NCBI GenBank assembly: GCA_937870915.1
Contig: CALMZQ010000020.1
Coordinates: forward strand, 14,843-78,842
Direction: 5' to 3'
DNA from: an uncultured Ignavibacteria bacterium
Lineage (GTDB): Bacteria; Bacteroidota; Ignavibacteria; Kapaibacteriales; Kapaibacteriaceae
DNA: 64,000 nt
Below, piece after piece: positions 3,011 through 56,201 of the stretch (its first letter is position 1; each line of letters starts with the position of its first letter). The position numbers and the translations under genes are program-made. The notes beneath the pieces are model-generated. The model was not told where the DNA came from and did no database searches. It saw only the letters and a list, made by a program, of their open reading frames with translations.

Positions 3011-3240
3011 ATCGGGCTTTAGCCCGATGACGGAATGACGGAATGACGGAATGACGGTATGACGGAATGACGGTATGACGTCGGGCTTTAGCCCGATGTG
3101 ACCTCACTCGCTTCGCTCGTAGTGACGAAATGACCTCACTCGCTTTGCTCGTAATGACGAAATGACGTAATGACGTAATGACGATATGACTAATCGTCAC
3201 TTTGTCATTGCGTCATTCCGTCATTTCGTCATTGCGTCAT
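3011..3240. repeat. composite intergenic repeat block: two TCGGGCTTTAGCCCGA palindromes, ATGACGGW octamer array, two 32-nt units, then inverted CGTCAT octamers
   Basis: Palindromes sit at 3011-3028 and 3081-3096 and bracket 6.75 copies of ATGACGG(A/T) (3027-3080). Tandem 32-nt units lie at 3100-3131 and 3132-3163. NATGACGN octamers run to 3192, then six NNCGTCAT octamers in opposite polarity occupy 3193-3240. Confidence 0.9.
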
Positions 3241-3273
3241 TGGCTTCATTGGCTTCATCAGCTCATCCCCCGT

Positions 3274-3475: not shown

Positions 3476-5947
3476 ATGAGAACCCTAAGCCTACTGTCCT
3501 CGTCTGCTGTTCTCAGCGTTGTTGCTTTTCTTGTTCTTACGTCGTGTGAACGAGATAGAAGTTCTTTGCCGTACAGGTCATCTGGTTTCGTCGCAGATAG
3601 AGCAGATTCGATTCGCTTGTGGGATACAGACCGGCGTGGTTTGCCGGAACAGGTGCTTTCGTTGACGGATTCTCTCCTTGCTGGCCTCGACTCCATTCCT
3701 GCCGGCGAGCAGTACACGTATGCACTCTACATCCGCGGTAAGAGCTTATTCAAACTAGGAGCGTACGAAGAGTCAATCCAGACAATGGGTCGTGTTGTAC
3801 AAAGGGGCTCTCCAAACACTGAGATGATTCGCAATGCACGGCTGTTTGCTGCGCACGGCCTTCGTGCATGTAATGACACCCTTGGTGCATTGGCACTCTA
3901 TCGAGCATGTCTTCGATACTCATCGGTGATCGAAGCCTCACGCAATGCAGATGCGCTTGCCAACATCGCTATGATCGAGCGTTGGCTCGGAAGGAAGGAC
4001 TCGGCGGTCATACATGCACAAATAGCTAGATCGAGTTTTGAGAGTGTTGGAGACACCAGTGGCGTTGAGTGGACCGAACGTATCATACGTGGCGTGGCCC
4101 ACAACACTCTTCCTCATCCTCGTCAGCCTGTAACCATCCGACGTCTCCCTGCCATTCGCTCGGAGTCTATCTACCCTCATCCCGATCTGGTAATGGACAT
4201 CGTTGTTGATGGCAATGGCATGAAGTGGATGGCAACACTCTTGGGTCTGGTTCGAGACCTAGGGTTTGGCGTTGAGTGGCCACAGGCAGAAGGCGTTGAG
4301 GTTACACAGGCTTTCACCGATCTCATTCGAGAGACCGACTCCACGATACTGGCTAAGGCCATCGGTGGGGGTTGGATCCGGGTCCATGTTGAACAAATGG
4401 GGGTCTCAGAATGCCCGCCTCCACGCAAACCCTCGACACGAATCAACGCGGATGTCCCTTCTTCTCTCGTCAATGACCTTGGTGGAACTGTGCGAACCAA
4501 GACCGATCTTCCTCCTACAATCGATGCCAACCTCGTGACGAGAGTCCTGATGCAGGATGACAGCACATCCGTTATTTGCCTGAGAGACCGCGGTGCACTT
4601 CTTTGGGAACACCACACGAACAAGATCGATCGGATCTTCTCCTATGGAGAGGCTTGGACTGCTGGAATTCTCGACGTGCGGGATGTCTTTCGAGGTCAAG
4701 ACAGATGGGGAGCATTGTCGGTACGCGGAATAGCATGGGAACGTCTCACGCGGAAGAATAACCGCACCACGCTTTCCAACACCTACCGAGATGGAAGTGC
4801 GATACATGCCTACCGATTTCATCGTATAGGTGCTTCACTTACGATCATCGAATGTGATGACCACAAGTCCTTGCTCATCGATTCGACCGTGATTCGTATT
4901 CCGGCCAAGGGGATCGACACATCGATGCGATGGCCGGATCGCTCTTGGATGATCTCCGGTATACGGAAGAATGATTCTGTGCTCTCTGTATCAATCGGTC
5001 TAGATGGTGGATCACTGCCTGAGTTCACTGCAGAAGCGCTCAGGTTCAGCCCCTTGACAGCCAACGACGTTGCATGGCATCCAATACAATACGCGATCGA
5101 TGATCAACAGTGGAGACCGCTGGAAGCCAACGGATGGGTGAACTTACGGGACCTCGATTTTGGAACACACATCGTCGGTATTCAGTGGGCAGACGGTTCC
5201 GCCACAACCTTCATCCCTGTGTTCTCCTCCACTCGTTGGTGGGCAACATGGTGGGGGCGCATTTCGCTGACCATTGCATTTGCGCTGTTCGTTACCGTGC
5301 TCGTGTGGTTCGTTATGAGACGCAGAATGAACCTCCGACTTGAACAACAGCAACGGATACACGATGAGCGAGACCGAATATCACGCGACCTTCATGATCA
5401 CGTAGGTAGTCAGCTTGCGAGAATGTCCACGATCGCCTCTCGGATAGAAAAGAGCTCTGATCCGATCGATCGCGATGTTCTACTGAAGAGGTTGCAACAG
5501 TCATCCCGTGAGGCAACGCGGAGTTTACGTGACGTCCTGACGATCTCTCAGGGAGGGACATCAACCTTACAGGACGTTATCGCTGTACTGCGAGAACGCT
5601 TACGTGAGCTTGCTGGAGATGTCCAGGTTTCGTTTTTGTTCGATATTGACAACCAGATCCACAAACAGCTATCGGGCGAACAACGGCACCACCTTGTGAT
5701 GTTCGTAATGGAGGCTGTGACCAATGCTGTCCGTCATGGCGAGTCCGCAGCGATCTCCATGATCCTGCAACAGCAGAACAACCGAACAGAGCTCCTGTTG
5801 GTTGATGACGGCAGCGGGCGAACCGCTCAGGATCGGATCGGTCTAGGTACCGCTACCATGGAGCATCGTGCCGCAATTCTCGGTGCTACGGTCACGTGGG
5901 AGCCAGGTACCCAGGGCGGCACGGTGGTACGATTGGTGTGGCGATGA
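3476..5947 (+). CDS. sensor histidine kinase (TPR-like and beta-rich/Y_Y_Y-like extracytoplasmic region, HisKA_3 + HATPase_c)
   Basis: Signal/lipobox-like N-terminus MRTLSLLSSSAVLSVVAFLVLTSC and a TM helix WWGRISLTIAFALFVTVLVWFVM. H-box RISRDLHDHVGSQL (HisKA_3), N-box EAVTNAVRHG, and DDGSG. Start chosen at ATG 3476 rather than 3446. Confidence 0.85.
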   Translation: MRTLSLLSSSAVLSVVAFLVLTSCERDRSSLPYRSSGFVADRADSIRLWDTDRRGLPEQVLSLTDSLLAGLDSIPAGEQYTYALYIRGKSLFKLGAYEESIQTMGRVVQRGSPNTEMIRNARLFAAHGLRACNDTLGALALYRACLRYSSVIEASRNADALANIAMIERWLGRKDSAVIHAQIARSSFESVGDTSGVEWTERIIRGVAHNTLPHPRQPVTIRRLPAIRSESIYPHPDLVMDIVVDGNGMKWMATLLGLVRDLGFGVEWPQAEGVEVTQAFTDLIRETDSTILAKAIGGGWIRVHVEQMGVSECPPPRKPSTRINADVPSSLVNDLGGTVRTKTDLPPTIDANLVTRVLMQDDSTSVICLRDRGALLWEHHTNKIDRIFSYGEAWTAGILDVRDVFRGQDRWGALSVRGIAWERLTRKNNRTTLSNTYRDGSAIHAYRFHRIGASLTIIECDDHKSLLIDSTVIRIPAKGIDTSMRWPDRSWMISGIRKNDSVLSVSIGLDGGSLPEFTAEALRFSPLTANDVAWHPIQYAIDDQQWRPLEANGWVNLRDLDFGTHIVGIQWADGSATTFIPVFSSTRWWATWWGRISLTIAFALFVTVLVWFVMRRRMNLRLEQQQRIHDERDRISRDLHDHVGSQLARMSTIASRIEKSSDPIDRDVLLKRLQQSSREATRSLRDVLTISQGGTSTLQDVIAVLRERLRELAGDVQVSFLFDIDNQIHKQLSGEQRHHLVMFVMEAVTNAVRHGESAAISMILQQQNNRTELLLVDDGSGRTAQDRIGLGTATMEHRAAILGATVTWEPGTQGGTVVRLVWR

Positions 5948-9874: not shown

Positions 9875-9985
9875 ATGCAAAAACACCACACGTTGGTCTT
9901 CGTGGCCGTGATCTGTGTACTTCTCGGGTGTGAACCCGATATCATGATGTATCAGAATCTACGAACGTTGCAGACGCGGATATGA
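9875..9985 (+). CDS. candidate 36-aa mini-lipoprotein (MQKHHTLVFVAVICVLLGCEPDIMMYQNLRTLQTRI)
   Basis: ATG 9875 lies within ORF 9557..9985. Textbook lipobox (VLLGC). A one-mismatch -7 box, TATCTTTT, sits 4 nt upstream. The ORF is very short and has no homology support. Confidence 0.3.
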   Translation: MQKHHTLVFVAVICVLLGCEPDIMMYQNLRTLQTRI

Positions 9986-10013
9986 TCGACAAGGGTCTGT
10001 TCTCTATTCTCTG

Positions 10014-10075
10014 TTCGCTATTCGCTATTCGCTATTCGCTATTCGCTATTCGCTATTCGCTATTCGCTATTCGCC
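10014..10075. repeat. perfect heptamer microsatellite (TTCGCTA) x8 plus a partial unit
   Basis: Counted directly: units start at 10014, 10021, ... 10063, followed by TTCGCC. The array supplies the stop codon and last codons of the minus-strand gene ending at 10053. Confidence 0.95.
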
Positions 10076-18196: not shown

Positions 18197-18315
18197 ATGT
18201 AATGACGTAGTGACCTAGTGACGAAATGACGATCTGTCGTTTCGTCATACCGTCATTACGAGCGTAGCCAGTAAGGTCATTTCGTCATTACGAGCGTAGC
18301 GAGTAAAGTCATTTC
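18197..18315. repeat. ATGAC/GTCAT octamer block with polarity switch, followed by two tandem 32-nt units
   Basis: The 32-nt units at 18252-18283 and 18284-18315 differ from each other at 2 positions. After rotation they are 28/32 identical to the reverse complement of the 3132-3163 unit. Confidence 0.9.
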
Positions 18316-18321
18316 ATGGGG

Positions 18322-18329
18322 TACTTTTG
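18322..18329 (+). promoter_or_regulatory. -7 promoter box TACTTTTG, 4 nt upstream of ATG 18334
   Basis: Exact TAnnTTTG at fixed short spacing. It lies downstream of the first ATG (18316), arguing for the 18334 start. Confidence 0.5.
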
Positions 18330-18333
18330 TCCC

Positions 18334-19509
18334 ATGATCTCTCCCTTCCTCTCCTCTGCTTCGGCCTTTGTGGCCACGTTCTCCAAGCCCCCTAAGGGAT
18401 CTGATGTCCAGAAGGTAGTGGTCTCGGGCGTCAATTCGGCAGAGGGATGGAGTATCCGGACCGAGCGGTTCACGGAGAAACAGGCCTTCACAGATCCAAC
18501 GGTAAAGATTGTGGGCGACCCATCACCGGCGCTCACGCCTTGGCTGGAGAGAACATTTCGTCAAGTCCTCGTGCAAACCCCGGAGGCTGATCTTCAGATC
18601 CTCAGGACGTTTAAAGGGGGCGAAGTGAGAACCTCAACAAAACGTCTGCCGCCTTCGCGCACTCGCTGGGATGGAGTTGCTGCCGACAGAACAAAGCAGA
18701 GAAGTCTTACTCCAGAGAATGACGCAGCCTTTCTTATAGCGCTCGACATTGCAACAGCGGATGGGAAGATCAAGGCCTCTATGGCCGATAAATTTCGTCA
18801 GGTGAATCACCTTCTTGCAGGGGCTCGTTTGGCCTCGACCAATAATGGACCGTATCGTATCGTTGATGCAGGCTGCGGTAAAGCCTACCTCTCTCTCTCA
18901 CTCATGTATGTACTGCAGCGTGAGGGTGTTGATGCTCATCTCCATGGGATAGATGCCAATCAACATGTGGTCGATCATTGTACCTCGGTGGCACAAAGGC
19001 TTGCACTCACAAATGCCACGTTTACATGTGAACGCATTGGTGACGTAGTACCAACACAAGAATGTGATCTGCTCATTGCACTTCATGCATGTGATACAGC
19101 AACAGATGAAGCATTAGCTCTCGGTCTTGAGATGAAGGCGAAGAAGATGCTTGTTGCTCCGTGCTGTCACCACGAAGTGCAGAAACAATTACGTAAGGAA
19201 TCGGTTCCTGATTATGCCCGCCCCCTCCTCGATGATGGAATTACGAGGGAACGATTAGGCGACCTCCTCACAGATTCCATGAGACGAGACATTCTTCGGT
19301 CACTAGGCTATGAAGCCCACCTCGAGGAATTCATATCGCTGGAACACACACAGAAGAACATTCTCCTACGTGCAGAGTTCACCGATACGAACGAACGCGA
19401 CCGACTCCAATGGGCCGATCGCGTTCGTGCGATGATCACAGCATGGGGCGCATCACCACGGTTGATGTCCATGGTTGAGCTGCCGTCCAACAAGCCCCCT
19501 ATCGCATAA
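18334..19509 (+). CDS. class I SAM-dependent methyltransferase (Methyltransf_32-like)
   Basis: SAM motif I, RIVDAGCGKAYLSLSL, then LHACDTATDEAL and VAPCCHHEV. Confidence 0.7.
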   Translation: MISPFLSSASAFVATFSKPPKGSDVQKVVVSGVNSAEGWSIRTERFTEKQAFTDPTVKIVGDPSPALTPWLERTFRQVLVQTPEADLQILRTFKGGEVRTSTKRLPPSRTRWDGVAADRTKQRSLTPENDAAFLIALDIATADGKIKASMADKFRQVNHLLAGARLASTNNGPYRIVDAGCGKAYLSLSLMYVLQREGVDAHLHGIDANQHVVDHCTSVAQRLALTNATFTCERIGDVVPTQECDLLIALHACDTATDEALALGLEMKAKKMLVAPCCHHEVQKQLRKESVPDYARPLLDDGITRERLGDLLTDSMRRDILRSLGYEAHLEEFISLEHTQKNILLRAEFTDTNERDRLQWADRVRAMITAWGASPRLMSMVELPSNKPPIA

Positions 19510-19954
19510 TGAGCAAGGGGCTTCTCTTTTCAACGAAGCCATCAATGAAGGCCACAACATACATTCCTGTTGTAAGGTGTTGCACATTCAACGTACTCAT
19601 TATTTGTCCTTGCGTCATGGCCTGCTCGGCAACCGTGCGCCCGGCAACATCTGTGACGATGAGTCGAGAATTGATACCGCTGACGACGTTGCCGAGCTGA
19701 ACCATAACCGTTGATGTTGTAGGATTGGGTGCAAGCGTGAACGCCGATGAAACATCATTGCCCCCGTTTACACTGTTCACCGTAGCCGTAGTGCGCTTTG
19801 TGATGTTGCCTCTACCGTCATAGGTATAGGTTGTTTGTTTTCCGCCGGCATATCGTACCGTGGCAATGCGACCAACTGCATCGTATGTGTAGGTCTGTGA
19901 CCATGCACATGTGGATGCGACGATTGCTGCGATGAGAATGATGATGGTTTTCAT
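19499..19954 (-). CDS. mini YD-repeat protein with signal peptide and T9SS type-A C-terminal sorting domain
   Basis: MKTIIILIAAIVASTCAWSQ signal peptide and two YD repeats (YTYDAVGRIATVRYAGGKQTTYTYDGRGNITKR). About 85-aa CTD (FTLAPNPTTSTVMVQL...LIVTDVAGRTV...LTTGMYVVAFIDG...). Starts 10 nt downstream of the Rhs gene stop. Confidence 0.75.
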   Translation of the reverse strand: MKTIIILIAAIVASTCAWSQTYTYDAVGRIATVRYAGGKQTTYTYDGRGNITKRTTATVNSVNGGNDVSSAFTLAPNPTTSTVMVQLGNVVSGINSRLIVTDVAGRTVAEQAMTQGQIMSTLNVQHLTTGMYVVAFIDGFVEKRSPLLIMR

Positions 19955-19963
19955 TGTTGACCC

Positions 19964-22900
19964 TTAAAAGACGATGAAATATTCAAGGATGTCTCGCGCC
20001 CAATCCGGCAGATAACTACCACGACCTGAGCCTCCGGCCGGTGCCCGTTTTCCGCCCGGGACTGGGGCTGGCGTAGGCGCTGGTGGCGGCGTTGGCACAG
20101 GTGCCGGTGCTGGTGGTGGGTTGTTCGTACCAGTCGGCCTAGGTTTTGGTGTTGGGCGTGGACGTGGCTGCGACCGCACTTCGCGTGCTCGGCGCTCGGC
20201 TTGGCGATCTAACTCGCGCTGCTGCGCCTCAGCAAGAATGATGTCATTGATCGCTGCTGCTTTCGCCAATGCACGATCACTGTTCCGGCGTGAGTCTTCG
20301 AGCCAATCGGTTGTTGGGACATTGGGTTCTGGTGTTGCCCCGGAAGCATCATGGGAATTGATTGGATCGCCCCATGCAAAGGCATACGCATTGAAGGCAC
20401 GAGGGTCCAACAGTTCCACGGGATCTTCGGATGTGAATCGTCCGGTGGTTGCATCGTAGATGCGCGAGCCCATCACGAATTGTGAAGAACCGGGCGTCCA
20501 TGTACCTCTCTGACCACCATATTGGAACGGCACCATGGTCTCTCCATCTGATGCAAGGGGCTCTCCATATGCCCCATAGGCAAACCGTGCTACCACCGTC
20601 CCATTGTCATCGCTTACCATCACAACGTTTCCGCTGGCATCATAGTGGAAGAAACGATGTTCTCCGTTGACCGAATTCACCATGCCGAAAACGCCATCTT
20701 CAACTGTAGCAAGAACGACCCACGTTTGACCATTCACCGTAACCAATTGCGGAAGACCACCGAGAACATCATTGAGGACAACAACAACGGAGTCGGCTCC
20801 ATTGCGGATTCCAACAACTCTATCGAAACCATCGAATATGAACTCACCAATTGCCGGATGTACCGGCGTCGTGAGCTCGTTCGCTGTGGTATACGTCATG
20901 GATTTGTCTTCATCAACGGGTGTTGCAACGAGATGTCCCTGCGATTGAATAGATGTGATCTTACCATCTGCTGCTCGTGTGACCATCATAGAGATTGATG
21001 GACCCTCTTCGATAGCCGTTACCGCGCCCGTACCATCACGACTATATCGTGTGGTCAAGGCTGCTGACCGCTGCGTTTCGATGATCGAACCATTGGCATC
21101 ACGCACGAGTGTAATTGTTGCTCCGGTCCAATCCGATAGCGTCTTCACACGGCGCATTGCATCGTAGGTATAGGTAATGTTCCTACCGGGTTCAACGGTT
21201 ACGCTCGCAACGGTTCCATCTGCGTTCGAAGAGATCTCTGAGCCATTGCTCTCTGATATTGCTCCGGAGGCATCATAGGTACGATGTACACGTGTCGAAG
21301 AAGTGAGCCGTCCGCCAGTATCATACGTATACATATGGCGTGGGGAATTGGATTTGCGTTGTTCAACGATGTCTCCCCTCCTGTTGCGTCGAAGCTCTGT
21401 TACCACACCACTTGCATCTGTGATCGAGCGCACACGCCCCCTAACATCATAATCGTAGGACGTTGTTTTTCCCGTTGGATCAGTCCGAAGAGTGAGGAGA
21501 TCTAGGGCGTTATAGGCATAGGTCCATACCCCACCATCACCATCACGAACAACAGTGATCCTTCCAAGAGTGTCGTAGGACATCACTGTGCCTACCGTTC
21601 CATGTTGCCACCGCGTGATCTGTCCTGGTCTTCCGTATGTATGAGTAGTCGATCGCTGAACGGCATCTCGGTATTCAATGAGGTCACCCGATGCGTCATT
21701 GGTAAACCTTTCTGCACCACCTATCGGAGATGTTACATCACTGATCAATCCCCGCCCATCATACTGGAACTCTGTTGCTCCTCCGGCACGAGCTTCATGT
21801 CTCGTCATATATCCATCGGCATTGTTGGTAAAGAGTTCTTTTCTACTCTCTGCATTAGCAATGGCAGACAACCACCCGGCGCTGTCATACTCTCGCGAGG
21901 TATAGATGTTAGTACCTACATGTGTTGTGGTGAGACGCCCGGCATCGTCATAGTCCAGAGTAACGGCATCTCGCCCTGGTCTACTCATGCTCGTCATTCT
22001 TCCGGTGCGATCAACTCCATACGTTGTGACTATTCCGCTAGGAGTTGTTGCACTTGCTACATTGCCCCACCGGTCATAGGTCCAGCTAGTAGAGGCTCCC
22101 ATTTCGTCCGTATAGGTGACAACCCTACCCTGAGCATCGTAATCAAATGAAACACGTGATGTGTCGGGGTACACGATCGTCGCGATGTCGCCACGTCCGT
22201 TTGTTGTGTACATGGTAACGGCACCAAGCGCATCACGCATCGATGTGATGTGACCACGTGCATCGTACGTATATGACGTTGTGGCAGACATTGACTGCGC
22301 AACCGTGACCAATCCGGTCTTCGTATTGCGTGTATAGGTAAAGGGGCGTGTGGATCCTTCAACGCGTGTTAGCCAACCTTGGCCGTCACGTTCATATGTT
22401 ATCCGCCGGCCCATTTCATCCACATGAGAAGTGCAATCCCATACCGTTGCTCCATTCCAGTTCCGCGAGCGATACTCCCACTGTTCAGTGCCACCGTTGC
22501 CATGCCTGATACTTGCAATCCGTCCACTACTATGCCATGTGAAACGTACAGTATCGCCCCCTGCAGAAACAATGGTTGATGGTCTGTTTAATGCGTCGTA
22601 GGCAAAGCGCATTTGTGTTGAACCAGCACCGATTGAGACCACCTGACCTTGCGGATTCCATGTGTGTTCTTCTGCAACACCTTCTCCATCAACAAAGCGT
22701 GATAGGTTTCCGGTGTAGGTGTATGTCGAAGCACGACCTTCTGCATCGGTTTGTGAGGTGATTCGTCCGTTTGCATCATACACATTGATGACCTCAACAA
22801 TCCCGACGCCACGATCCACCGACGTGATCTGTCCAGCTTGTGAACCATACGAATACGATGTTGCATTTCCACCGGTGCGAGTGGCAGATGTGAGTTCATT

Positions 22901-24205
22901 GGCAGCCGAATACGTGTACGTGCACGTTACCGATCCATCGGTTGCAGTGATGATACGTCCCTGATCGTCCGTTGTAAAGGTAATGGAGTGGCCCAGTGAA
23001 TCCGTCACACTCGCAATGAACGTTCCATTCCATCGCACATGCATTGGGATGGTCCCATCATCGATCTTGGTGAGAGCACCTTGGGCATTGAATGTATACT
23101 GAATGCTACGAGTTACATCTGTAACCAGCCAACCACCAGACGCCTCCTGCACCGAGTAGACATTGGTACTTATGGACCGCTGAGTATAGGTGCTGCCCGA
23201 GCGCATAAAGCTCACGCGATCAAAGCCGGGAAGCTGAACGAACAGCTCGTTGGGCGAAACGTGGAGAGATGCATCAAACGTGTGAGACCAATTCCATCCC
23301 ATGTTGGAGATGAAGCCTGCTGATATACCTGATCCGTCATACATTCGGTGAAAACGAATAGGACCCACCGACATGTGGAGATCAGGCTCCTCTCGCAGGA
23401 TAAACGTACCTGTTCGGGGCGATACAGGATCTCCAAATGTTGACGTCCAGATGTGAGGGCCATCTGTTCCCGCAACTGTATCTCCGTTGGAAGGGGGCGT
23501 GCGTGGGGAAACAACGATGTAGTCGTGACCCTTTGGAGATCCCGTCTCACACTCCCGCCATGCAAATCCCACGGCCGTGGCCATCACATCTGCGCCCTTT
23601 GCCGTCATGGTAAACGTTACAGACTGTCCATCGGCAATTGTCTGCTCTGTGTCGGGCGTCATATCCCAGAACGTCTCCGAATTCATAAAGGGCAGGATCG
23701 TATAGCAGCAACCAGGTGGAGCCGTATAGGTAATGCCGCCACTGGTGCTTGTGACCAACAATGTGCCCGGTGTGAGAATGGGGCGAGTAGAACACTCAGC
23801 CGCGGCAAGAACAGTCTCGTTCACAACTAGTGTCTGTGGTCCGGTGATATTCGCATCACTATTGGCCTCAATCGTGATTGTGTGAGCCCCTTCCATTGTT
23901 GGCGTCCATGCTTGCTCAGGGATAGCCTCAACACTCTGGCCTGCTCCAACAAACGTTGACCCTGCCATTTGGAACATGATGGCTTGCGTGAGCAGATATC
24001 GCACCGTAATGGTCCATTGCACTGGACCTAATGCATAGACCGAGTTTCTATTTGTAAGCAGAAATCTCAAGATGATCTGTTGCGAGACAAGTGCTTGCGT
24101 TGACCATCGCTTCTGCGGTTGTGCCAGTTCGCCAGCCTGTGTGGTACTGCCTAAGGCTGATACAGCTAGTAGTACCACAAGAATAATCCTACCAAGTACA
24201 TTCAT
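19964..24205 (-). CDS. Rhs/YD-repeat family protein (1413 aa) with Sec signal peptide and atypical proline-rich C-terminal tip
   Basis: Signal peptide MNVLGRIILVVLLAVSALGSTTQAGE and many YD repeats (e.g. YTYDANGRITSQTDAEGRASTYTY, FDYDAQGRVVTYTDEMGASTSWTYDRWGNV). Rhs core end: FFHYDASGNVV...AYGAYGEPL...RIYDATTGRFTSEDPV...NAYAFAWGDPINSHDASGA. Confidence 0.9.
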   Translation of the reverse strand: MNVLGRIILVVLLAVSALGSTTQAGELAQPQKRWSTQALVSQQIILRFLLTNRNSVYALGPVQWTITVRYLLTQAIMFQMAGSTFVGAGQSVEAIPEQAWTPTMEGAHTITIEANSDANITGPQTLVVNETVLAAAECSTRPILTPGTLLVTSTSGGITYTAPPGCCYTILPFMNSETFWDMTPDTEQTIADGQSVTFTMTAKGADVMATAVGFAWRECETGSPKGHDYIVVSPRTPPSNGDTVAGTDGPHIWTSTFGDPVSPRTGTFILREEPDLHMSVGPIRFHRMYDGSGISAGFISNMGWNWSHTFDASLHVSPNELFVQLPGFDRVSFMRSGSTYTQRSISTNVYSVQEASGGWLVTDVTRSIQYTFNAQGALTKIDDGTIPMHVRWNGTFIASVTDSLGHSITFTTDDQGRIITATDGSVTCTYTYSAANELTSATRTGGNATSYSYGSQAGQITSVDRGVGIVEVINVYDANGRITSQTDAEGRASTYTYTGNLSRFVDGEGVAEEHTWNPQGQVVSIGAGSTQMRFAYDALNRPSTIVSAGGDTVRFTWHSSGRIASIRHGNGGTEQWEYRSRNWNGATVWDCTSHVDEMGRRITYERDGQGWLTRVEGSTRPFTYTRNTKTGLVTVAQSMSATTSYTYDARGHITSMRDALGAVTMYTTNGRGDIATIVYPDTSRVSFDYDAQGRVVTYTDEMGASTSWTYDRWGNVASATTPSGIVTTYGVDRTGRMTSMSRPGRDAVTLDYDDAGRLTTTHVGTNIYTSREYDSAGWLSAIANAESRKELFTNNADGYMTRHEARAGGATEFQYDGRGLISDVTSPIGGAERFTNDASGDLIEYRDAVQRSTTHTYGRPGQITRWQHGTVGTVMSYDTLGRITVVRDGDGGVWTYAYNALDLLTLRTDPTGKTTSYDYDVRGRVRSITDASGVVTELRRNRRGDIVEQRKSNSPRHMYTYDTGGRLTSSTRVHRTYDASGAISESNGSEISSNADGTVASVTVEPGRNITYTYDAMRRVKTLSDWTGATITLVRDANGSIIETQRSAALTTRYSRDGTGAVTAIEEGPSISMMVTRAADGKITSIQSQGHLVATPVDEDKSMTYTTANELTTPVHPAIGEFIFDGFDRVVGIRNGADSVVVVLNDVLGGLPQLVTVNGQTWVVLATVEDGVFGMVNSVNGEHRFFHYDASGNVVMVSDDNGTVVARFAYGAYGEPLASDGETMVPFQYGGQRGTWTPGSSQFVMGSRIYDATTGRFTSEDPVELLDPRAFNAYAFAWGDPINSHDASGATPEPNVPTTDWLEDSRRNSDRALAKAAAINDIILAEAQQRELDRQAERRAREVRSQPRPRPTPKPRPTGTNNPPPAPAPVPTPPPAPTPAPVPGGKRAPAGGSGRGSYLPDWARDILEYFIVF

Positions 24206-24290
24206 CGTCCCCTCCGAGTGATTGTGATTTCGAAGGCGAACTTCACACTTCCCGTAACGCCGCGCACCCGGACAAAAGCCGGACAGGGGA

Positions 24291-24386
24291 AATGACGGAA
24301 TGACGGGATGACGGAATGCCGAAATGACGGAATGACGGGATGACAGAGTGACGGAGTGACGGAATGACGGAATGACGGAATGACGG
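24291..24386. repeat. 12 tandem octamers (R)ATGACGG between the TPR-LuxR stop and the Rhs start
   Basis: Counted units: aatgacgg x2, gatgacgg, aatgccga, aatgacgg x2, gatgacag, agtgacgg x2, aatgacgg x3. Confidence 0.95.
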
Positions 24387-24400
24387 AAGAATATGCAGGG

Positions 24401-25981
24401 TTACAATGAGGAGATAAATGTCGAAAGTGAGTCGGATGCTGAAAGTCCGAGCTTCTTGCGGATACGTTGTCGATACTTCTCAATTGATCGAGGCTCAGTA
24501 TTAAGCAGACGGGCTATCTCCTTTGAGGAAAGGTCGATGCGAATCAGGGCGCATACCTTTCGTTCTGTTGGAGTGAGGGATGGGAAATGTTTTGATAGGT
24601 ACTGAAGTGACTCGCCGTGGAGGTTGGACAGCTGTTCCTCTATGCCATTCCAAAAGATGTCCGTACCAAGGGACGCGTCGATTTCCTTGATGATCATCGA
24701 GAAAACCTCCTTGTCATCGGCGTCGGCATCGCGTGCGAGTGAGCGCAACCGGCCCGACAAATCTCTCAGTCGAGCATTCGTTTCACCAATGGCTAAGGTC
24801 AGTTTCGAGAGTTCGGCCGTTCGCCTACGCGCTTCAGCTTCGAGCTCATGCGTGCGATCTCGTTCTCTCCGTAGCTCCTCAAGAGACCGTTCATGTGTAT
24901 GGCGCGCTTCAATCGCCCTCAGTTTTGAGGCAGAATCTAGGTCTATCACCGCGCGCTCAGAAGTAGTATATCGCTTATAGGCTTCGAGGGCCTGAGCAGG
25001 ATCTCCGAGCATCTCATACGCACGAGCAAGCTCGCGATTGATCTGGTAATTCAGCGTATGAATCGATCTGGATTCAATGATCTTCCTTGCCTCCTCAAAA
25101 CACTGAATGGCACTGCTGAGGTTATATCCTGTGTACCCAGATTCGGCATAGACCTGACCTAGGTTTCGTAAGGCAACGGCACGCGAGACATCTAATCCAC
25201 GTTGTTCAGACAAGGTTAGACACAACGTAAACGCCTCAACGGCAGCATCGTAGTGTTTAGATGCATTGCTAACGTCAGCCAGATTGAGATGATCAACACC
25301 AATGGATTCCTGAATCTGAATTTCAATTCGAGCATCAATTGGCACATCATCGCTCTTCTTGAGTTCGTTTAGTGCAGCACGATAGGCACTCAAAGCTTTG
25401 GTGTAGTTGTTCTTCTTGCTGTGCGTCATTCCTATACTTCGAAGCGCCAGAGCAGTCCTTGCTCGATCACCACGCATTCGCATGAGCTCTGCAGTACGCG
25501 TAAACCAGGAAAGTGCATCATCAAATTCACGATGGTTGAAGAACACCATACCAATGTTCCCCGAAGCAGCTGATGCTACTGCAACATCACCGAGTTTTTC
25601 GGCATCGCGCAACGCCTGCTGCAGCAAATCCATGGCTGCATCGAGATCACCTTGGATCATGAGATACCGACCAAGCTCTTGCCGTGTTCGCATCACAAGA
25701 ACAGCGTCTTCACATCGGTCCAATTCGTTGAGCAGAGGCCTAAGGATCTCCAGCGCCTCTACGGCTGACTCTCCACGTTCTAGGGTGGCTGCAAGTTGGA
25801 GGGCAGAACGTATCCAATGTGTACGCCATGTTGATCGATCTCGCTGAGCCCCCTTCATCCTGTCACGGGCCAGACGCACAGCAGCTGTTAGATTCTGGAC
25901 GGCCGTGTCTTCATTGCTCTCTGCAAGGGATAGGAGTTCGGCAAACCGCTCTGTATCGGTGGTTCGGGAGGCCATGACCAC
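24401..25981 (-). CDS. TPR-repeat transcriptional regulator with C-terminal LuxR/GerE HTH
   Basis: Multiple TPR-like helical repeats, a coiled-coil segment (ELRRERDRTHELEAEARRRTAEL) and a C-terminal LTPTERKVCALIRIDLSSKEIARLLNTEPRSIEKYRQRIRKKLGL. Confidence 0.8.
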   Translation of the reverse strand: MVMASRTTDTERFAELLSLAESNEDTAVQNLTAAVRLARDRMKGAQRDRSTWRTHWIRSALQLAATLERGESAVEALEILRPLLNELDRCEDAVLVMRTRQELGRYLMIQGDLDAAMDLLQQALRDAEKLGDVAVASAASGNIGMVFFNHREFDDALSWFTRTAELMRMRGDRARTALALRSIGMTHSKKNNYTKALSAYRAALNELKKSDDVPIDARIEIQIQESIGVDHLNLADVSNASKHYDAAVEAFTLCLTLSEQRGLDVSRAVALRNLGQVYAESGYTGYNLSSAIQCFEEARKIIESRSIHTLNYQINRELARAYEMLGDPAQALEAYKRYTTSERAVIDLDSASKLRAIEARHTHERSLEELRRERDRTHELEAEARRRTAELSKLTLAIGETNARLRDLSGRLRSLARDADADDKEVFSMIIKEIDASLGTDIFWNGIEEQLSNLHGESLQYLSKHFPSLTPTERKVCALIRIDLSSKEIARLLNTEPRSIEKYRQRIRKKLGLSASDSLSTFISSL

Positions 25982-28527: not shown

Positions 28528-28599
28528 TAGTGTGCTAGTGTGCTAGTGTGCTAGAGTGTTAGACTGCTAGAGTGTTAGAATGCTAGAGTGTTAGAATGC
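28528..28599. repeat. nine tandem octamers TAGNRTGY (tagtgtgc x3, tagagtgt, tagactgc, tagagtgt, tagaatgc, tagagtgt, tagaatgc)
   Basis: Counted directly. The array fills most of the gap between the nuoD stop and the trmH start. Confidence 0.95.
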
Positions 28600-31943: not shown

Positions 31944-31987
31944 GTAACCAGTAACTAGTAACTAGTAACTAGTAACCAGTAACTAGT
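31944..31987. repeat. 6.3 tandem heptamers GTAACYA
   Basis: gtaacca gtaacta x3 gtaacca gtaacta gt, between the PPK2 start and the 3' end of tRNA-Leu. Confidence 0.95.
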
Positions 31988-37863: not shown

Positions 37864-37931
37864 TTGTACTGACAGGCTATTGTTCGTATTTTCGGCGTCA
37901 TGCATTCGTCCACCCCTGAACGGGAGTGACC

Positions 37932-39389
37932 ATGGTTCGCGCCATACTCTGTGTTGTTATCGCGGTCGGATTTTCAATCTCGGCATTTGCCCAGCGGTCG
38001 ATTACGTTGTCCAAGGGCACCGTGGTTACATTCCGCACGGTAGCTGAAGATATTGGCTATCCTGCCAGCCTCACGCAAGAGCCCAATGGAATGTTATGGC
38101 TCACTGACCGTGCAACGGGAAGAGTACTTCGTGTAGATCCCGGCACAGGAGCCGCTACAACGGTACTTGAGGTAAAACTCACATCAGACCCAAATGACCC
38201 AACTATACGTGGTGGCGTTTATGGACTGGCACTTCATCCTGCCTTTGCCAATGGAATGCCTTACGTTTTTGTATCCACCACTACTGCAGATGACAGGCTC
38301 ATCATTGAGAAGTATCGGTTCAGTGGTGATCGGCTTGTGAATCCAGTTGTGATCTATGTGACCAACGGCGTTCCGCATTCCCTTGGTCTAACAATGGAGG
38401 CATTGGCTGACAACACGCTGCTGGTAAGTGTTGCCTCATTTGATACACAGGATCCCATCCGCCTCGACAATGTAAATGGGAAGATCATTCGCATGACGTT
38501 CGAAGGTGAGGCTGTTACCTCAAATCCCATGTTCGATGCGAATAATCCGCATTCAGCCAGATCCTACATCTATTCAACCGGACACCGCAACCCACTTGGG
38601 CTTGTGCAGCTCCCCGTTACACATGCTACCATACCTGGCGCAGTGTTCTCAAGCGAATGTGGTCCGCGTTCGTTTGACGAGATCAATCGAATCGAACCCG
38701 GCAGAAACTATGGCTGGCTCAATGTTGCAGGCTATTGCACAACTGCAACGCAAGGTCTCGCTTGCCCTCTCGCTACCATGAATCAAGCGCCAAGCGGAAT
38801 GGCCTACTATCCTTCATCGGCAATTCCTGAGTGGACCAACTCCCTTCTGTTAGGAACTCTGCGCGGTGAAGGCATGGTCGTAGCAGAACTCAATCCGGCC
38901 GGTACGATCTCAAACATCAACACTGAAAATCCTGTTGATGATGTGATGGAGCTTAGCTCCGATCAGCTCGTTGACCTATCACTTCAAGGTGAGTTGGAAA
39001 AGGTCATCGACGTAACAGTTGCATCCGACGGCCGCATCTACGTTGCACTGTTTGAAAGCAGTGATGCAAAGCGGGGTAGAATTATTGCGCTAGAGAATCT
39101 CGCTGTGCATGGCCCCCTCTCCGTTGACGGCGAGGAGCTTGCTACATCGAACGGTTTCCATTTTGGACCAAATCCTGTAAACGATGTGTTGAACGTGTCA
39201 CTTGACCGTCCGTTCGCTACATCATGGTCGGCTACCATCGTCGATCTCAACGGTGCAACGGTTTCTTCAGCACAGTTCACATCAGCATCAACACAGATCT
39301 CATTACTCACGGCTGACCTTGCTCCAGGCGCCTATATGCTGGTTGTGAAGGATGCATCGCAGATAATGACCACAACGTTCATTCGCTGA
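37932..39389 (+). CDS. PQQ-dependent sugar (glucose/sorbosone) dehydrogenase-like beta-propeller with T9SS C-terminal sorting domain
   Basis: Signal peptide MVRAILCVVIAVGFSISAFAQ and the GHRNPLGL motif. C-terminal CTD: FHFGPNPVNDVLNVSL...IVDLNGATV...LAPGAYMLVVKDAS. Confidence 0.75.
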   Translation: MVRAILCVVIAVGFSISAFAQRSITLSKGTVVTFRTVAEDIGYPASLTQEPNGMLWLTDRATGRVLRVDPGTGAATTVLEVKLTSDPNDPTIRGGVYGLALHPAFANGMPYVFVSTTTADDRLIIEKYRFSGDRLVNPVVIYVTNGVPHSLGLTMEALADNTLLVSVASFDTQDPIRLDNVNGKIIRMTFEGEAVTSNPMFDANNPHSARSYIYSTGHRNPLGLVQLPVTHATIPGAVFSSECGPRSFDEINRIEPGRNYGWLNVAGYCTTATQGLACPLATMNQAPSGMAYYPSSAIPEWTNSLLLGTLRGEGMVVAELNPAGTISNINTENPVDDVMELSSDQLVDLSLQGELEKVIDVTVASDGRIYVALFESSDAKRGRIIALENLAVHGPLSVDGEELATSNGFHFGPNPVNDVLNVSLDRPFATSWSATIVDLNGATVSSAQFTSASTQISLLTADLAPGAYMLVVKDASQIMTTTFIR

Positions 39390-43936: not shown

Positions 43937-44839
43937 ATGCAGTCATCCGATGTTGCTCTCCCGTCATACTGCGATTCGCTCACTACGTACCAACGCCGTC
44001 AGACGATAGACTTGACTGTTGGAGACGTCGGTATCGGCTCGTCCTTCCCTATCCGTGTGCAGTCTATGACTACCACGAATACGATGGATACCGATGCCAC
44101 CATTGCACAGTCAATTCGCATGATCGATGCAGGCTGTGAGCTTGTTCGCATCACAGCACCAAGTATGCGTGAAGCCAAAAATCTCGAAGAGATTCGTAAG
44201 GGGCTCCGAGCTCGCGGATACACAACACCACTCGTTGCCGATATTCATTACACGCCAAATGCAGCAGAGATCGCTGCTCGTGTGGTAGAAAAAGTGCGTA
44301 TCAATCCGGGTAACTACGTTGACAAAAAGCAGTTCAACGTGATCGAATACACCGATGAACAATACGCGTCAGAAATTGACCGTATTCGCGATCGGTTTAT
44401 GCCCCTTATCCGAATCTGCAAGGAATATGGAACGGCTATGCGCATCGGGACAAATCACGGTTCGCTTTCAGATAGGATCATGAGCAGATACGGTGACAAC
44501 CCTCATGGAATGGTTGAATCTGCCTTAGAATTTTTGCGTGTGGCTGACGACGAAGGGTACGATAACATCGTGCTGTCGATGAAGTCGAGCAATGCCCTCG
44601 TAATGGTCCAAGCGTATAGACTTCTGGTGGCACGCTTAAAGCATGAAGGTCTTAAGCCGTATCCGCTGCACCTAGGCGTAACTGAAGCCGGGGATGGTGA
44701 GGATGGCAGAGTAAAGAGCGCACTCGGAATTGGCACGCTACTCGAAGACGGTCTAGGTGATACTATCCGTGTCTCCCTTACGGAAGAACCTGAGGCAGAG
44801 ATTCCAGTTGCCCTCGCGCTCGCGCGGAGGTACGCATGA
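43937..44839 (+). CDS. ispG: IspG (HMBPP synthase), N-terminal TIM-barrel (A) domain as a separate ORF
   Basis: [20 protein letters not shown]..., [55 protein letters not shown], and [10 protein letters not shown]. It ends at a TGA embedded in ATGA with the next ORF. Confidence 0.85.
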
Positions 44840-45852
44840 GGGATCCCTACGCCTACCATCGGCGGAAGACGCATGCTGTGGCCAGTATAGGTGCAGACAA
44901 CGTACCACGAGTGGTTGCGCGTCTCAACAATACGTCCGTTCTCCGTATGGAAGACCTTGCAGCTGTTGGTCATATCTACGATCCGGCATCGGACAAGTGG
45001 ATGATGCGCGATCAAGCAGCAGAGTTCCTCTATATGGGCGAACGTCCACTATCGTTTATGGCACCGGCTGGCACTCGCCAGATTCTCGACTATGATACGT
45101 GGCTAAGGCATGAAGACCGGTTCTATTGCGTGCCACTCATTGAAGTCTCAGGGTATTTGCAAAGCAGCCCTGAGTGCCATTCCGTGATGAACGTGATTCG
45201 ATGTGAGATCCGAGATATAACGCCCGACCTCATTGATAAACTGCGTGCCGACATCACGGCTGTTTTGCTGTTGCGCAGTGACTCACATTCGTATTACACA
45301 AGTATGCGAATGGCGTGTGACACACTCCTTCTCAGTGGAATAGCAACACCGGTAATTCTCGAGCACGAACTATCTGCCCCCTCAGTTGATGAACTCGTGT
45401 TACGAGCGGCTACGGATCTCGGTGGATTGCTCGTGGATGGTTTTGGTGACGGAACGATGCTCAGCGTTGGCAATGGTGATGAAGTTGACGAGGCGTTATC
45501 CCTACGACTCGCTTACAACGTCTTACAGGCAGCCCGAACTCGTATGACCAAGACGGAATATATCAGTTGCCCTTCCTGTGGAAGAACATTGTTCGACCTG
45601 CAGGAAACCACCTCTCTCATACGGTCACATACAGATCATCTTAAGGGTGTAAAGATTGGTATCATGGGCTGCATTGTGAATGGTCCGGGAGAGATGGCCG
45701 ATGCAGATTACGGCTACGTGGGATCAGGACCAGAACGTATCACGCTCTATCGGGGTCAGGACATCGTGCAACGCAATATCCCTGCGGCAGGTGCAGTTGA
45801 GGCATTAATGGACATCATCAAGACCGATGGTCGCTGGGTTGAGCGTACCTAG
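44836..45852 (+). CDS. ispG: IspG insert (A*) plus C-terminal 4Fe-4S (B) domain as a separate ORF
   Basis: C-terminal [17 protein letters not shown]...[26 protein letters not shown] carries the IspG cluster-binding cysteines. It is in a different frame from 43937..44839. Confidence 0.85.
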
Positions 45853-53856: not shown

Positions 53857-53904
53857 TTCGTCATAACGTCATATTGTCATAACGTCATTTCGTCACTACG
53901 TCAT
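53857..53904. repeat. six tandem octamers NNCGTCAT (reverse orientation of the ATGACG family)
   Basis: ttcgtcat aacgtcat attgtcat aacgtcat ttcgtcac tacgtcat, ending 5 nt before the rpsR stop. Confidence 0.9.
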
Positions 53905-53908
53905 TCTC

Positions 53909-55894: not shown

Positions 55895-56121
55895 AACCCA
55901 TACATGACAAGGTTGCCAAGGAAGAATTCGTGATAGGCAACACCTACAATGTGTCACTACGCGGCAAGCCGCTCTACTCTGCAGAAGTCGTGAAATTCCA
56001 CGGCGGTTGCTGGGCTACTGTAAGGGTTACCAAACCCCTCAGTGACGAAGTTGCCCAGATGTATACTCCTGGAACGGAGTTTGATATCAAGGTTGCGGAG
56101 TATGAGTTACTCAGTTACTAG
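55891..56121 (+). CDS. hypothetical 76-aa protein, ATGA-coupled to the upstream kinase gene
   Basis: The ATG at 55891 overlaps the TGA at 55892-55894. The last five codons and the stop come from the GTTAC repeat array. Confidence 0.45.
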   Translation: MKPIHDKVAKEEFVIGNTYNVSLRGKPLYSAEVVKFHGGCWATVRVTKPLSDEVAQMYTPGTEFDIKVAEYELLSY

Positions 56122-56201
56122 TTACTCAGTTACGAGTTACTCAGTTACTAGATACGAGTAACTGGGTAACTCGTAACTAGTAACTCGTAACTGATTAACT
56201 A
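56106..56201. repeat. inverted arrays of GTTAC-type 7/8-mers (three 15-mers, then the reverse orientation) filling a convergent intergenic gap
   Basis: Left arm: gttactcagttacta / gttactcagttacga / gttactcagttacta (56106-56150). Right arm: gtaactgg gtaactc gtaacta gtaactc gtaactg... (56157-56201). The inner 18 nt of the two arms are 16/18 complementary. Confidence 0.9.

Follow-up and report, generated by a model that had tools for sequence, protein, structure and literature searches.

A conserved regulator, Rhs and mini-YD gene block of an uncultured Ignavibacteria bacterium may encode a two-part cell-surface device

The closest described relatives of the proteins discussed here are shells built from tyrosine-aspartate (YD) repeats, namely the Rhs effectors of type VI secretion systems (T6SS) such as Tse15, RhsA and RhsP, the TcB-TcC cocoons of Tc toxins, the bacterial teneurin-like proteins (TLPs) and the metazoan teneurins. 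The Tc cocoon is a joint structure of two separate chains, TcB and TcC, and this provides a precedent for a two-chain YD assembly; the metazoan teneurins illustrate that YD shells can be repurposed for adhesion. In this paper, we report the analysis of a 64,000-nucleotide stretch of DNA (hereafter, the window) from an uncultured Ignavibacteria bacterium (contig CALMZQ010000020.1, positions 14,843 to 78,842), in which a gene for a large Rhs protein is followed by a gene for a small protein that joins two YD hairpins (mini-YD) to a type IX secretion system (T9SS) C-terminal sorting domain (CTD).

Bacterial TLPs have been described as putative surface-exposed YD shells that are rare and occur mostly in species with social behaviour, and their C-terminal domains are diverse toxins with associated immunity proteins (PMC13018210), unlike the pair described here. 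The core of the large protein aligns best to one of them, BiTLP (PDB 9pt5/9ifo). For T6SS Rhs proteins two autocleavage sites have been published, an N-terminal site x/PVxxxxGE with a nucleophilic Glu, and a C-terminal autoprotease with the motif DP(I/L)GxxGGx5Yx8D(P/S)xG(L/W) (PMC11461821).

For the small protein, the nearest described analogues are PGN_1767 and, in concept, PorA, both of Porphyromonas gingivalis. PGN_1767/PG1798, an 'RHS repeat protein' of approximately 420 residues, likewise joins a short YD/RHS passenger to a T9SS CTD in a member of the Fibrobacteres-Chlorobi-Bacteroidetes (FCB) group (PMC7712824); it is about three times longer than the small protein, is not reported to have a full Rhs cage beside it, and is likened here by description only. 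PorA (PGN_0123), a very small CTD protein with a non-enzymatic role, binds PorV and has an influence on a transcriptional cascade (PMC7712824), but its passenger is a FimH-like lectin, it occurs only in Porphyromonas, and it has neither YD repeats nor an Rhs neighbour. A further relevant concept is that of hitch-hiker export, known from Tat and from peroxisomal import, in which a folded protein that has no signal of its own passes through a membrane in complex with a signal-bearing partner (PMC9251779). Export of the large protein by proxy would be the same idea, and is for this locus a hypothesis only.

The large protein resembles the T6SS Rhs effectors and the Tc cocoons in having a DUF6531-type plug, a YD shell and a core with two Asp residues at canonical spacing. 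It differs from both in carrying a Sec signal peptide where those have a PAAR, VgrG or TcA link, in having a conserved, low-complexity, non-enzymatic C-terminal region instead of a hypervariable toxin, in lacking an immunity gene, and in having as its partner a YD/CTD protein of 151 residues. With respect to the T6SS proteins, the N-terminal nucleophilic Glu is lost and DxSG(A/R) stands in place of D(P/S)xG(L/W). Judged by its sequence, the large protein thus is not of the T6SS class, having neither the N-terminal nucleophile nor a PAAR or VgrG link. By domain content it is not teneurin-like either, though its core is most similar to that of one such protein: NHL/beta-propeller, FN-plug and Tox-GHH elements turned up nowhere in general domain scans, in which these elements were not searched singly, and the TEN_YD-shell model (PF25023) reached 45 bits, below its cutoff of 50, over 43 residues only.

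A three-gene block kept in three lineages

The conserved unit formed by the two genes and a regulator gene directly upstream may encode a two-part cell-surface device. The block of regulator, Rhs and small gene was recovered in three lineages (loci are denoted by L numbers), with its order kept in all of them. The first lineage comprises the window, L013 and L009 (97-98% identical), and a sister clade at approximately 75% (L010-L012, L049 and L050), which includes 0.5- and 1.3-Mb contigs of two Ignavibacteria metagenome-assembled genomes (MAGs; GCA_016706965.1 and GCA_016704805.1). The second comprises L001-L007 and L014, and the third is L048, a metagenome contig of 158 kb that came up in a search with the N-terminal domain of the Rhs protein. 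Every contig with a relative of the small protein has an Rhs gene directly upstream, the small gene lying throughout 3' of an Rhs gene with the same tail, and an orthologue of the regulator is found directly 5' of the Rhs gene in L002, L048, L049 and L050. The regulator, which the original prediction had placed upstream, is confirmed by Pfam, and the small gene is syntenic with Rhs in every relative recovered.

The same neighbours, AlaRS, an M61 peptidase, SpoU and NuoD, lie next to the block in all three lineages. For the window, L048 and L049, the M61 peptidase is found upstream of the regulator, but in L002 of the second lineage it is downstream of the small gene; this switch of sides indicates that the three genes move as a unit. 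Their pace of divergence is also alike: identity to the sister clade is 74% for the Rhs protein, 75% for the small protein and 77% for the regulator (L049), and between lineages it is 33-40%, 36-40% and 33-44% (regulator to L002/L048), respectively. The locus lies on the chromosome among housekeeping genes, on contigs of up to 1.3 Mb, and the module is, by these sequence comparisons, vertically inherited, non-polymorphic and of the Ignavibacteria/Kapabacteria type within the FCB group.

Only a handful of relatives of the small protein were retrieved. Full-length matches to it among 185,579 species genomes came from two loci only, and the family is, on that survey, rare and restricted to this lineage. 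In a HMMER profile search with the small protein, only P0002 and P0004 among the matches listed were full-length and small (>141 bits); the list is dominated by giant multi-repeat YD proteins, and distant mini-YD/CTD proteins may rank below these. A hidden Markov model of the small CTD run against 148 of the giant YD proteins, which is a weak test, found no CTD.

Within the block, the Rhs and small genes of the window are separated by 9 nucleotides (nt), TAA GGG TCA ACA ATG from stop to start, one fewer than had been noted before; the open reading frames (ORFs) and coordinates given earlier for the two genes match the sequence exactly. This gap is 8-9 nt wide in the window clade and is wider in L002 (19 nt) and L048 (81 nt). 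Since the spacing is tight and a search for promoter-like or terminator-like sites between the two genes found none, we infer that they are co-transcribed. The next gene downstream of the small gene is, depending on the lineage, a convergent housekeeping methyltransferase or the M61 peptidase, and thus no candidate for an immunity gene follows. In the window, the 3' end of the small gene overlaps the convergent Methyltransf_32 gene (18316-19509, + strand) by 11 nt (19499-19509); the same overlap recurs in L049 and L050, which leaves no space where a terminator could separate the convergent genes.

Selection was estimated as omega against the sister clade, to which synonymous sites are heavily diverged in every gene (dS 0.56-2.9). 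The Rhs gene as a whole gave 0.094, the regulator 0.062 and the small gene 0.27, compared with 0.034 for AlaRS, 0.023 for the M61 peptidase and 0.083 for the methyltransferase; the cassette is clearly under purifying selection, yet less constrained than housekeeping genes. Within the two proteins, the Rhs shell and core gave an omega of 0.11, the Rhs tail one of 0.034 and the YD part of the small protein again 0.11. The tail is therefore the most constrained segment of the Rhs protein, the opposite of the pattern expected from a polymorphic toxin tip or a decaying gene, and the YD part is the most conserved portion of the small protein. An allelic-replacement island, considered in view of the lower identity of the cassette (74-77%) compared with flanking proteins (94-96%), was rejected; the flanking dS is already 0.67-1.4, and the difference in identity reflects weaker constraint.

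On the evidence of sequence and gene order, the Rhs and small genes are not a toxin-immunity pair, as the C-terminal region is conserved rather than hypervariable and a secreted YD+CTD protein occupies the place immediately downstream where an immunity gene would lie. Of the two possibilities raised originally, a decaying polymorphic-toxin locus is refuted by the collinear trio in three lineages, its purifying selection and the low omega of the tail, whereas a two-part system gains support as a conserved genetic unit from the synteny and from the absence of a toxin, an immunity gene and a cryptic CTD in the searches described below.

Domain composition of the Rhs and mini-YD proteins

Searches of Pfam and NCBIfam assigned the large protein to RHS_repeat (PF05593, 6e-63, 11 stretches), to the YD-repeat family TIGR01643 (2.4e-46) and, over residues 1210-1289, to Rhs_assc_core (TIGR03696, 47.8 bits against a cutoff of 32.5); no domain beyond RHS_repeat/YD, DUF6531 and the Rhs core was above cutoff. 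With multiple YD repeats and a core domain that closes the shell, it is by domain content a bona fide Rhs/YD-shell protein. The sequence matches of the shell in the PDB are T6SS Rhs cocoons and teneurin shells (1e-24 to 1e-12), and the orthologues are collinear, without evidence of a missing segment. The coordinates of all features are collected in Table 1.

At the N-terminus, the predicted cleavage junction A↓GELA.P is invariant in the alignment of all lineages. The mature N-terminus, GELA(Q/K/V)P (24119-24133, - strand; residues 25-30), is invariant although the orthologues are only 33-40% identical, and might be a sorting or interaction signal. The region that follows is 38% identical to that of L002, with blocks of invariant residues and four conserved Cys. 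Pfam gave only sub-threshold matches of Ig type (PKD, Big_7, He_PIG); a single-sequence AlphaFold2 (AF2) model is all-beta, with a mean pLDDT of 48 (60-82 over residues 154-232), and had only weak MSP/PapD-like (Ig-like) matches in Foldseek. From these weak hints, the region probably consists of two Ig-like sandwiches. In the plug, every lineage has PVxxxxG with T, Q or A as the next residue, and the nucleophilic Glu of the T6SS-Rhs site PVxxxxGE was not found in the plug of any of them.

The best match of the core is BiTLP (27.9 bits, E 1.5e-5), and the core aligns without gaps to this autocleaving bacterial TLP (9pt5; …NLYAYVHNNPVTLRDPSGL). Across the lineages, the consensus of the core end is DP(V/I)NxxDxSG(A/R): GxxGG of the published form is replaced, P/S is changed to A or W, and the P1 residue L/W to A or R, while both essential Asp residues (in the window, D1262 of SEDPV and D1287 of HDASGA) and the Gly are kept in all lineages at the same spacing as in BiTLP. 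The motif had been described as degenerate, which overstates the case. Because both catalytic Asp residues are kept, the motif is, from the alignment, a conserved variant and not a ruin, and loss of cleavage cannot be assumed.

The tail follows one plan in all three lineages, consisting of the variant core end, a PEP/PVP hinge, a charged helix, a Pro- or Gly/Ser-rich spacer and a terminal motif. Its length is approximately 124-238 residues in total (residues 1291-1413 in the window, nt 19967-20335, reading exactly as first quoted). The helix segment, rich in E, R, K and A, is about 57 residues long in the window and 97-98 residues long and ER/K-like in L002 and L048, with 5 opposite-charge i/i+4 pairs in the window, 31 in L002 and 25 in L048. 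The spacer is longer in both distant lineages, Gly/Ser-rich in L002 and Pro-rich in L048. Only about 20 ordered residues come after it; this terminal motif, of YLPDWARDILEYFIVF type, is identical across the window clade, where it is strongly amphipathic as a helix (alpha hydrophobic moment 1.26), and is recognisable in L048 (YLSDDLRDLLEWFTVLRSKR) and L002 (GRGSYNPE…IIDFYFR). The net charge of the tail is positive (+3 to +8). No transmembrane segment was found, the maximum Kyte-Doolittle (KD) hydropathy over 19 residues being 0.55 in the window and <0.9 in every lineage. Conserved ends together with a length-variable, extended middle suggest a spacer or stalk, and a non-enzymatic role.

This agrees with the earlier view that the tail is not toxin-like and that the large protein has no T9SS domain. 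No toxin family was found in the tails by Pfam and NCBIfam even at E≤10; no Por_Secre_tail or type-B CTD was found in the large protein (E≤0.01 over the whole protein, E≤10 in the tails), and none was listed for the Rhs orthologues.

The small protein matches RHS_repeat (1.3e-11) and YD_repeat_2x (residues 24-61), and its CTD matches Por_Secre_tail (PF18962, 37.9 bits, cutoff 27) and TIGR04183 (26.6 bits, cutoff 23), so that the two YD hairpins and the T9SS type-A CTD proposed originally are borne out above curated cutoffs; the signal peptide was read from the sequence. With a signal peptide and a type-A sorting domain, it qualifies by sequence as T9SS cargo. All six orthologues retain the signal peptide, a YD_2x unit with the consensus Y.YD..GR…VRY..G..T.Y.YD..GNI, an invariant NSV immediately behind it, a short variable linker and the CTD. 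An AF2 model from an alignment of five sequences (mean pLDDT 62) has strands at residues 21-24, 30-34, 39-45 and 51-58, a disordered linker at 59-79 and a beta-sandwich at 82-149; in Foldseek, the sandwich had weak matches to the T9SS CTDs 8glk_D, 8glj_D, 8qb1 and 5ag8 (E 4.5e-3 to 5.4e-2). After removal of the signal peptide and CTD, the passenger would be approximately 40-50 residues long. No immunity family was matched in Pfam, NCBIfam or Foldseek, which returned YD hairpins, linker and CTD only, and from its domains the small protein is not an immunity protein, in line with the absence of an immunity gene noted originally.

Two further readings of the small gene were considered and rejected. 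Derivation of the mini-YD from one particular shell repeat does not hold, as its YD unit is near the repeat consensus and the best-matching shell repeat differs in each lineage. Read-through of the Rhs stop codon to give an Rhs-CTD fusion was dismissed as well, since the small gene is in frame with the Rhs gene in the window clade only, this arrangement being absent from L010-L012 and L002 with their gaps of 8 and 19 nt, respectively, and the small protein starts with a conserved signal peptide of its own.

Table 1. Features of the Rhs and mini-YD locus, in positions of the window
Feature	Position	Strand	Description and basis
TPR and LuxR/GerE-type helix-turn-helix regulator	24401-25981	-	First gene of block; Pfam TPR_12 2.2e-22, GerE 1.5e-7
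Tandem array	24291-24388		8-nt unit CCGTCATT on gene strand, 12.2 copies; Tandem Repeats Finder score 147
Conserved 13-nt motif	24265-24277	-	TTTTGTCCGGGTG; upstream of Rhs start
Large Rhs gene	19964-24205	-	1413 residues, Sec signal; ORF read from sequence
Rhs signal peptide, residues 1-24	24134-24205	-	Read by eye; MNVLGRIILVVLLAVSALGSTTQA then GELAQP
Rhs N-terminal region, residues 25-255	23441-24133	-	Lineage-specific, all-beta, ~230 residues; invariant YTAPPGCCY and DGQSVTFT
DUF6531 plug, residues 258-321	23243-23434	-	Pfam DUF6531 5.5e-8; contains PVSPRTGT
YD-repeat shell, ~residues 322-1209	20579-23242	-	RHS_repeat (11 stretches), TEN_YD-shell, YD_repeat_2x
Rhs-associated core, residues 1210-1290	20336-20578	-	TIGR03696; ends GRFTSEDPVELLDPRAFNAYAFAWGDPINSHDASGA
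Tail part 1, residues 1291-1346	20168-20335	-	PEP hinge and E/R/A-rich helix-forming segment; composition, charge pairs; omega 0.043
Tail part 2, residues 1347-1393	20027-20167	-	Pro/Thr/Ala-rich low-complexity spacer; alignment; omega 0.026 within clade
Tail part 3, residues 1394-1413	19967-20026	-	Terminal motif GRGSYLPDWARDILEYFIVF; amphipathic as helix; omega 0.026
Small mini-YD/CTD gene	19499-19954	-	151 residues; directly 3' of Rhs gene
Signal peptide of small protein, residues 1-20	19895-19954	-	…CAWS↓Q; read by eye; low pLDDT in model
Mini-YD passenger, residues 21-58	19781-19894	-	Two YD hairpins, QTYTYDAVGRIATVRYAGGKQTTYTYDGRGNITKRTTA, then invariant (V/I)NSV; RHS_repeat and YD_repeat_2x
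Disordered linker (residues 59-75) and T9SS type-A CTD (residues 76-151)	19502-19780	-	Por_Secre_tail in Pfam and TIGR04183

Possible relationships between the two proteins

The reading we favour, tentatively and at somewhat less than an even chance, is that the mini-YD protein serves the Rhs protein as a dedicated partner with a T9SS address, acting as its tether or as the bearer of a hitch-hiker. Since both proteins carry Sec signals, they would meet in the periplasm, where the mini-YD could bind the Rhs protein either by a beta-sheet contact of the YD type or at the terminal motif of the stalk. It would thereby give the Rhs protein an outer-membrane address, a surface anchor or both, and the cage would be exported or held at the cell surface. 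Such a unit might serve a conserved envelope or surface function, for example adhesion or the display or delivery of an encased tail, rather than toxin warfare directed at kin.

Several points weigh against this partnership. The physical interaction, the export route and the final location have all been inferred, and both signal peptides were judged by eye. Narrow phrase searches found no case in the literature of a CTD-less protein hitch-hiking through the T9SS, and a closed cocoon of approximately 150 kDa would be bulky for a passenger. With both catalytic Asp residues kept, cleavage may take place, and it would break the covalent link between tail and cage, so that the tail could not serve as a simple tether. 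The mini-YD has no consistent likeness to any shell repeat and so gives no clue to a docking register, and three lineages are too few for covariation analysis.

A stronger form of the partner reading, which we consider unlikely, is that a CTD-less Rhs cage of approximately 150 kDa is exported or anchored by proxy through a two-hairpin adaptor of approximately 5 kDa with a T9SS CTD, as the first such case, with the cage serving as a teneurin-like module of the cell surface, not as a toxin, on a stalk of ER/K helix and polyproline. The adaptor would in that event also supply the surface anchor after sortase processing.

Equally unlikely, in our judgement, is a conventional cargo-delivering cage whose autocleaved tail is a non-enzymatic effector, e.g. 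a cationic, amphipathic, membrane- or matrix-active peptide, directed at non-kin such as eukaryotic grazers or distant bacteria, the small protein being an accessory or an unrelated neighbour. Non-kin targets would require neither polymorphism nor an immunity gene. The canonical spacing of the two catalytic Asp residues and the Gly would be explained, as would the positive charge and amphipathic end of the tail, and tails of 124-238 residues fall within the known size range of encapsulated Rhs C-terminal domains. BiTLP moreover offers a precedent, as its bacterial YD shell encloses a small C-terminal fragment that is membrane-active and not enzymatic (PMC13018210). However, the tail has, unlike BiTLP, no hydrophobic or transmembrane segment (maximum KD <0.9), an ER/K-type helix and a Pro-rich rod are typical of spacers and not of effectors, the spacer varies freely in length between conserved ends, the P1 residue is A or R instead of the canonical L/W, and the strict co-inheritance of the mini-YD gene would be left unexplained.

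Somewhat more doubtful is a separation of roles, in which the Rhs protein is periplasmic, envelope-bound or vesicle-borne, possibly membrane-tethered by the amphipathic end via its stalk, while the mini-YD is a small, PorA-like T9SS cargo that remains on PorV, on the translocon or at the surface and, as a sensor or regulator, feeds back on the TPR-LuxR regulator. In P. gingivalis, the small CTD protein PorA binds to PorV and has its place upstream of a regulatory cascade (PMC7712824), and a dedicated regulator and conserved upstream motif in the block, along with the high helical hydrophobic moment of the terminal motif, would suit such an arrangement. Yet the passenger of PorA is folded and lectin-like, compared with two YD hairpins only in the small protein, and scans of Pfam and NCBIfam showed no homology to PorA; a homotypic YD motif beside a YD-shell gene points to a direct relationship, and the regulator is cytoplasmic with no obvious link to a surface peptide.

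It is improbable that the mini-YD serves as a cap, inhibitor or assembly factor at the beta-edge or opening of the cage in the periplasm of the producer, keeping it closed or templating the folding of the shell before being removed through the T9SS. YD hairpins join by extending a beta-sheet, the coupling of the genes is tight and the YD part is the best conserved portion of the small protein (omega 0.11), but the Rhs protein already has both closures, the DUF6531 plug and the Rhs core, its collinear orthologues bear no sign of a missing shell segment, and a CTD would be odd for a periplasmic chaperone. Finally, a decaying polymorphic-toxin locus or gene-fission remnant, the tail being a degraded toxin and the small ORF being left over from an Rhs-CTD fusion, might be suggested by the non-canonical cleavage motif, the lack of a recognisable toxin or immunity gene and the in-frame ORF of the window clade, but is scarcely credible given ORFs that are intact in every lineage, an omega of 0.03 in the tail and 0.11 in the YD part despite saturated dS, the conserved signal peptide of the small protein, the loss of frame in L010-L012 and L002, and a chromosomal site amid housekeeping genes.

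Upstream elements, host and significance

A 13-nt motif upstream of the Rhs gene, TTTTGTCCGGGTG, has the same sequence in the window, L002 (~5153-5166), L048 (~9896-9908), L049 and L050, 65-140 nt 5' of the Rhs start. It is unique in the window, where 0.09 matches are expected by chance. In the window clade, a second TGTCCGG copy lies 5 nt upstream of it, giving the composite element TGTCCGG-N5-TGTCCGGGTG. The motif is a plausible candidate operator or promoter element and a putative site for the adjacent TPR-LuxR regulator.

The octamer array reported upstream of the Rhs gene is present, but it does not belong to this locus in particular: its copy number varies (approximately 12 in the window, 8 in L049 and 7 in L050), it is absent from L002 and L048, and similar GTCAT-containing arrays occur elsewhere in the window (3027-3080, 3204-3251, 18244-18315 and 53857-53905). 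It was rejected as a system-specific element and is a genome-wide, variable-number intergenic repeat. Intergenic tandem arrays with units of 7-8 nt are unusually abundant in the genome, and in the window they also include 10000-10074, 28528-28599, 31944-31987 and 56105-56149 besides those at the positions above and at 24291-24388. The units bearing GTCAT are ATGACGGA, GTCATTGC and TTCGTCAT; the others are TTCGCTA (x10.7), TAGAGTGC (x9), GTAACTA (x6) and AGTTACTC (x6).

The AlaRS and NuoD proteins of the window fall in clusters of at least 90% identity with many proteins of MAGs named 'Ignavibacteria bacterium' and 'Candidatus Kapabacteria'. The MAG labels 'Candidatus Didemnitutus sp.' (Verrucomicrobiota; L013, DATGWS010000320.1) and 'Bradyrhizobiaceae bacterium' (L014/L002, JAGFIZ010000086.1) were rejected as taxonomy and are almost certainly binning or labelling errors: AlaRS of L013 lies in a 90%-identity cluster of Ignavibacteria/Kapabacteria MAG proteins, and the T9SS-tagged genes and shared gene order of L014/L002 point to the same group. 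No T9SS machinery genes were found within the 64-kb window. A glucose/sorbosone dehydrogenase (GSDH) with Por_Secre_tail is encoded at 37926-39389 (+ strand), and further CTD cargo is found in related loci, a BNR protein in L049 and an arylsulfotransferase in L001. By these sorting domains, the organism uses T9SS cargo tags elsewhere, independently of the Rhs pair; together with the affiliation to the FCB group, they indirectly favour a putative T9SS translocon in the host.

The remaining genes of the window are housekeeping genes (AlaRS, NuoD, RsgA, RecJ, SMC, MreB, GAPDH, PGK, IspG, RuvC and PurD). GcpE/IspG is split into two overlapping ORFs at 43937-44839 and 44836-45852 (+ strand; 300 and 338 residues), which cover the N- and C-terminal parts of the Pfam model and could represent a frameshift, a sequencing error or a genuine split/insert-type IspG. 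In the sister-clade MAGs, a RelB/ParE toxin-antitoxin pair lies beyond AlaRS and DUF3127 (L049, 13110-13672; L050, 13132-13694).

The usual reading of bacterial Rhs cages, with few exceptions, is that they deliver polymorphic toxins and are paired with immunity proteins. The family described here appears instead to have a conserved, regulated, single-copy chromosomal function and a non-enzymatic, spacer-like tail. Use of a bacterial YD shell beyond toxin warfare would correspond to the transition that produced teneurins in animals. The three orthologous sets make the partner question directly testable. If the mini-YD/CTD protein does address or anchor the cage, T9SS cargo recognition would extend from signals in cis to adaptors in trans, the prediction of T9SS secretomes from genomes would change, and a very small, portable targeting module would become available.

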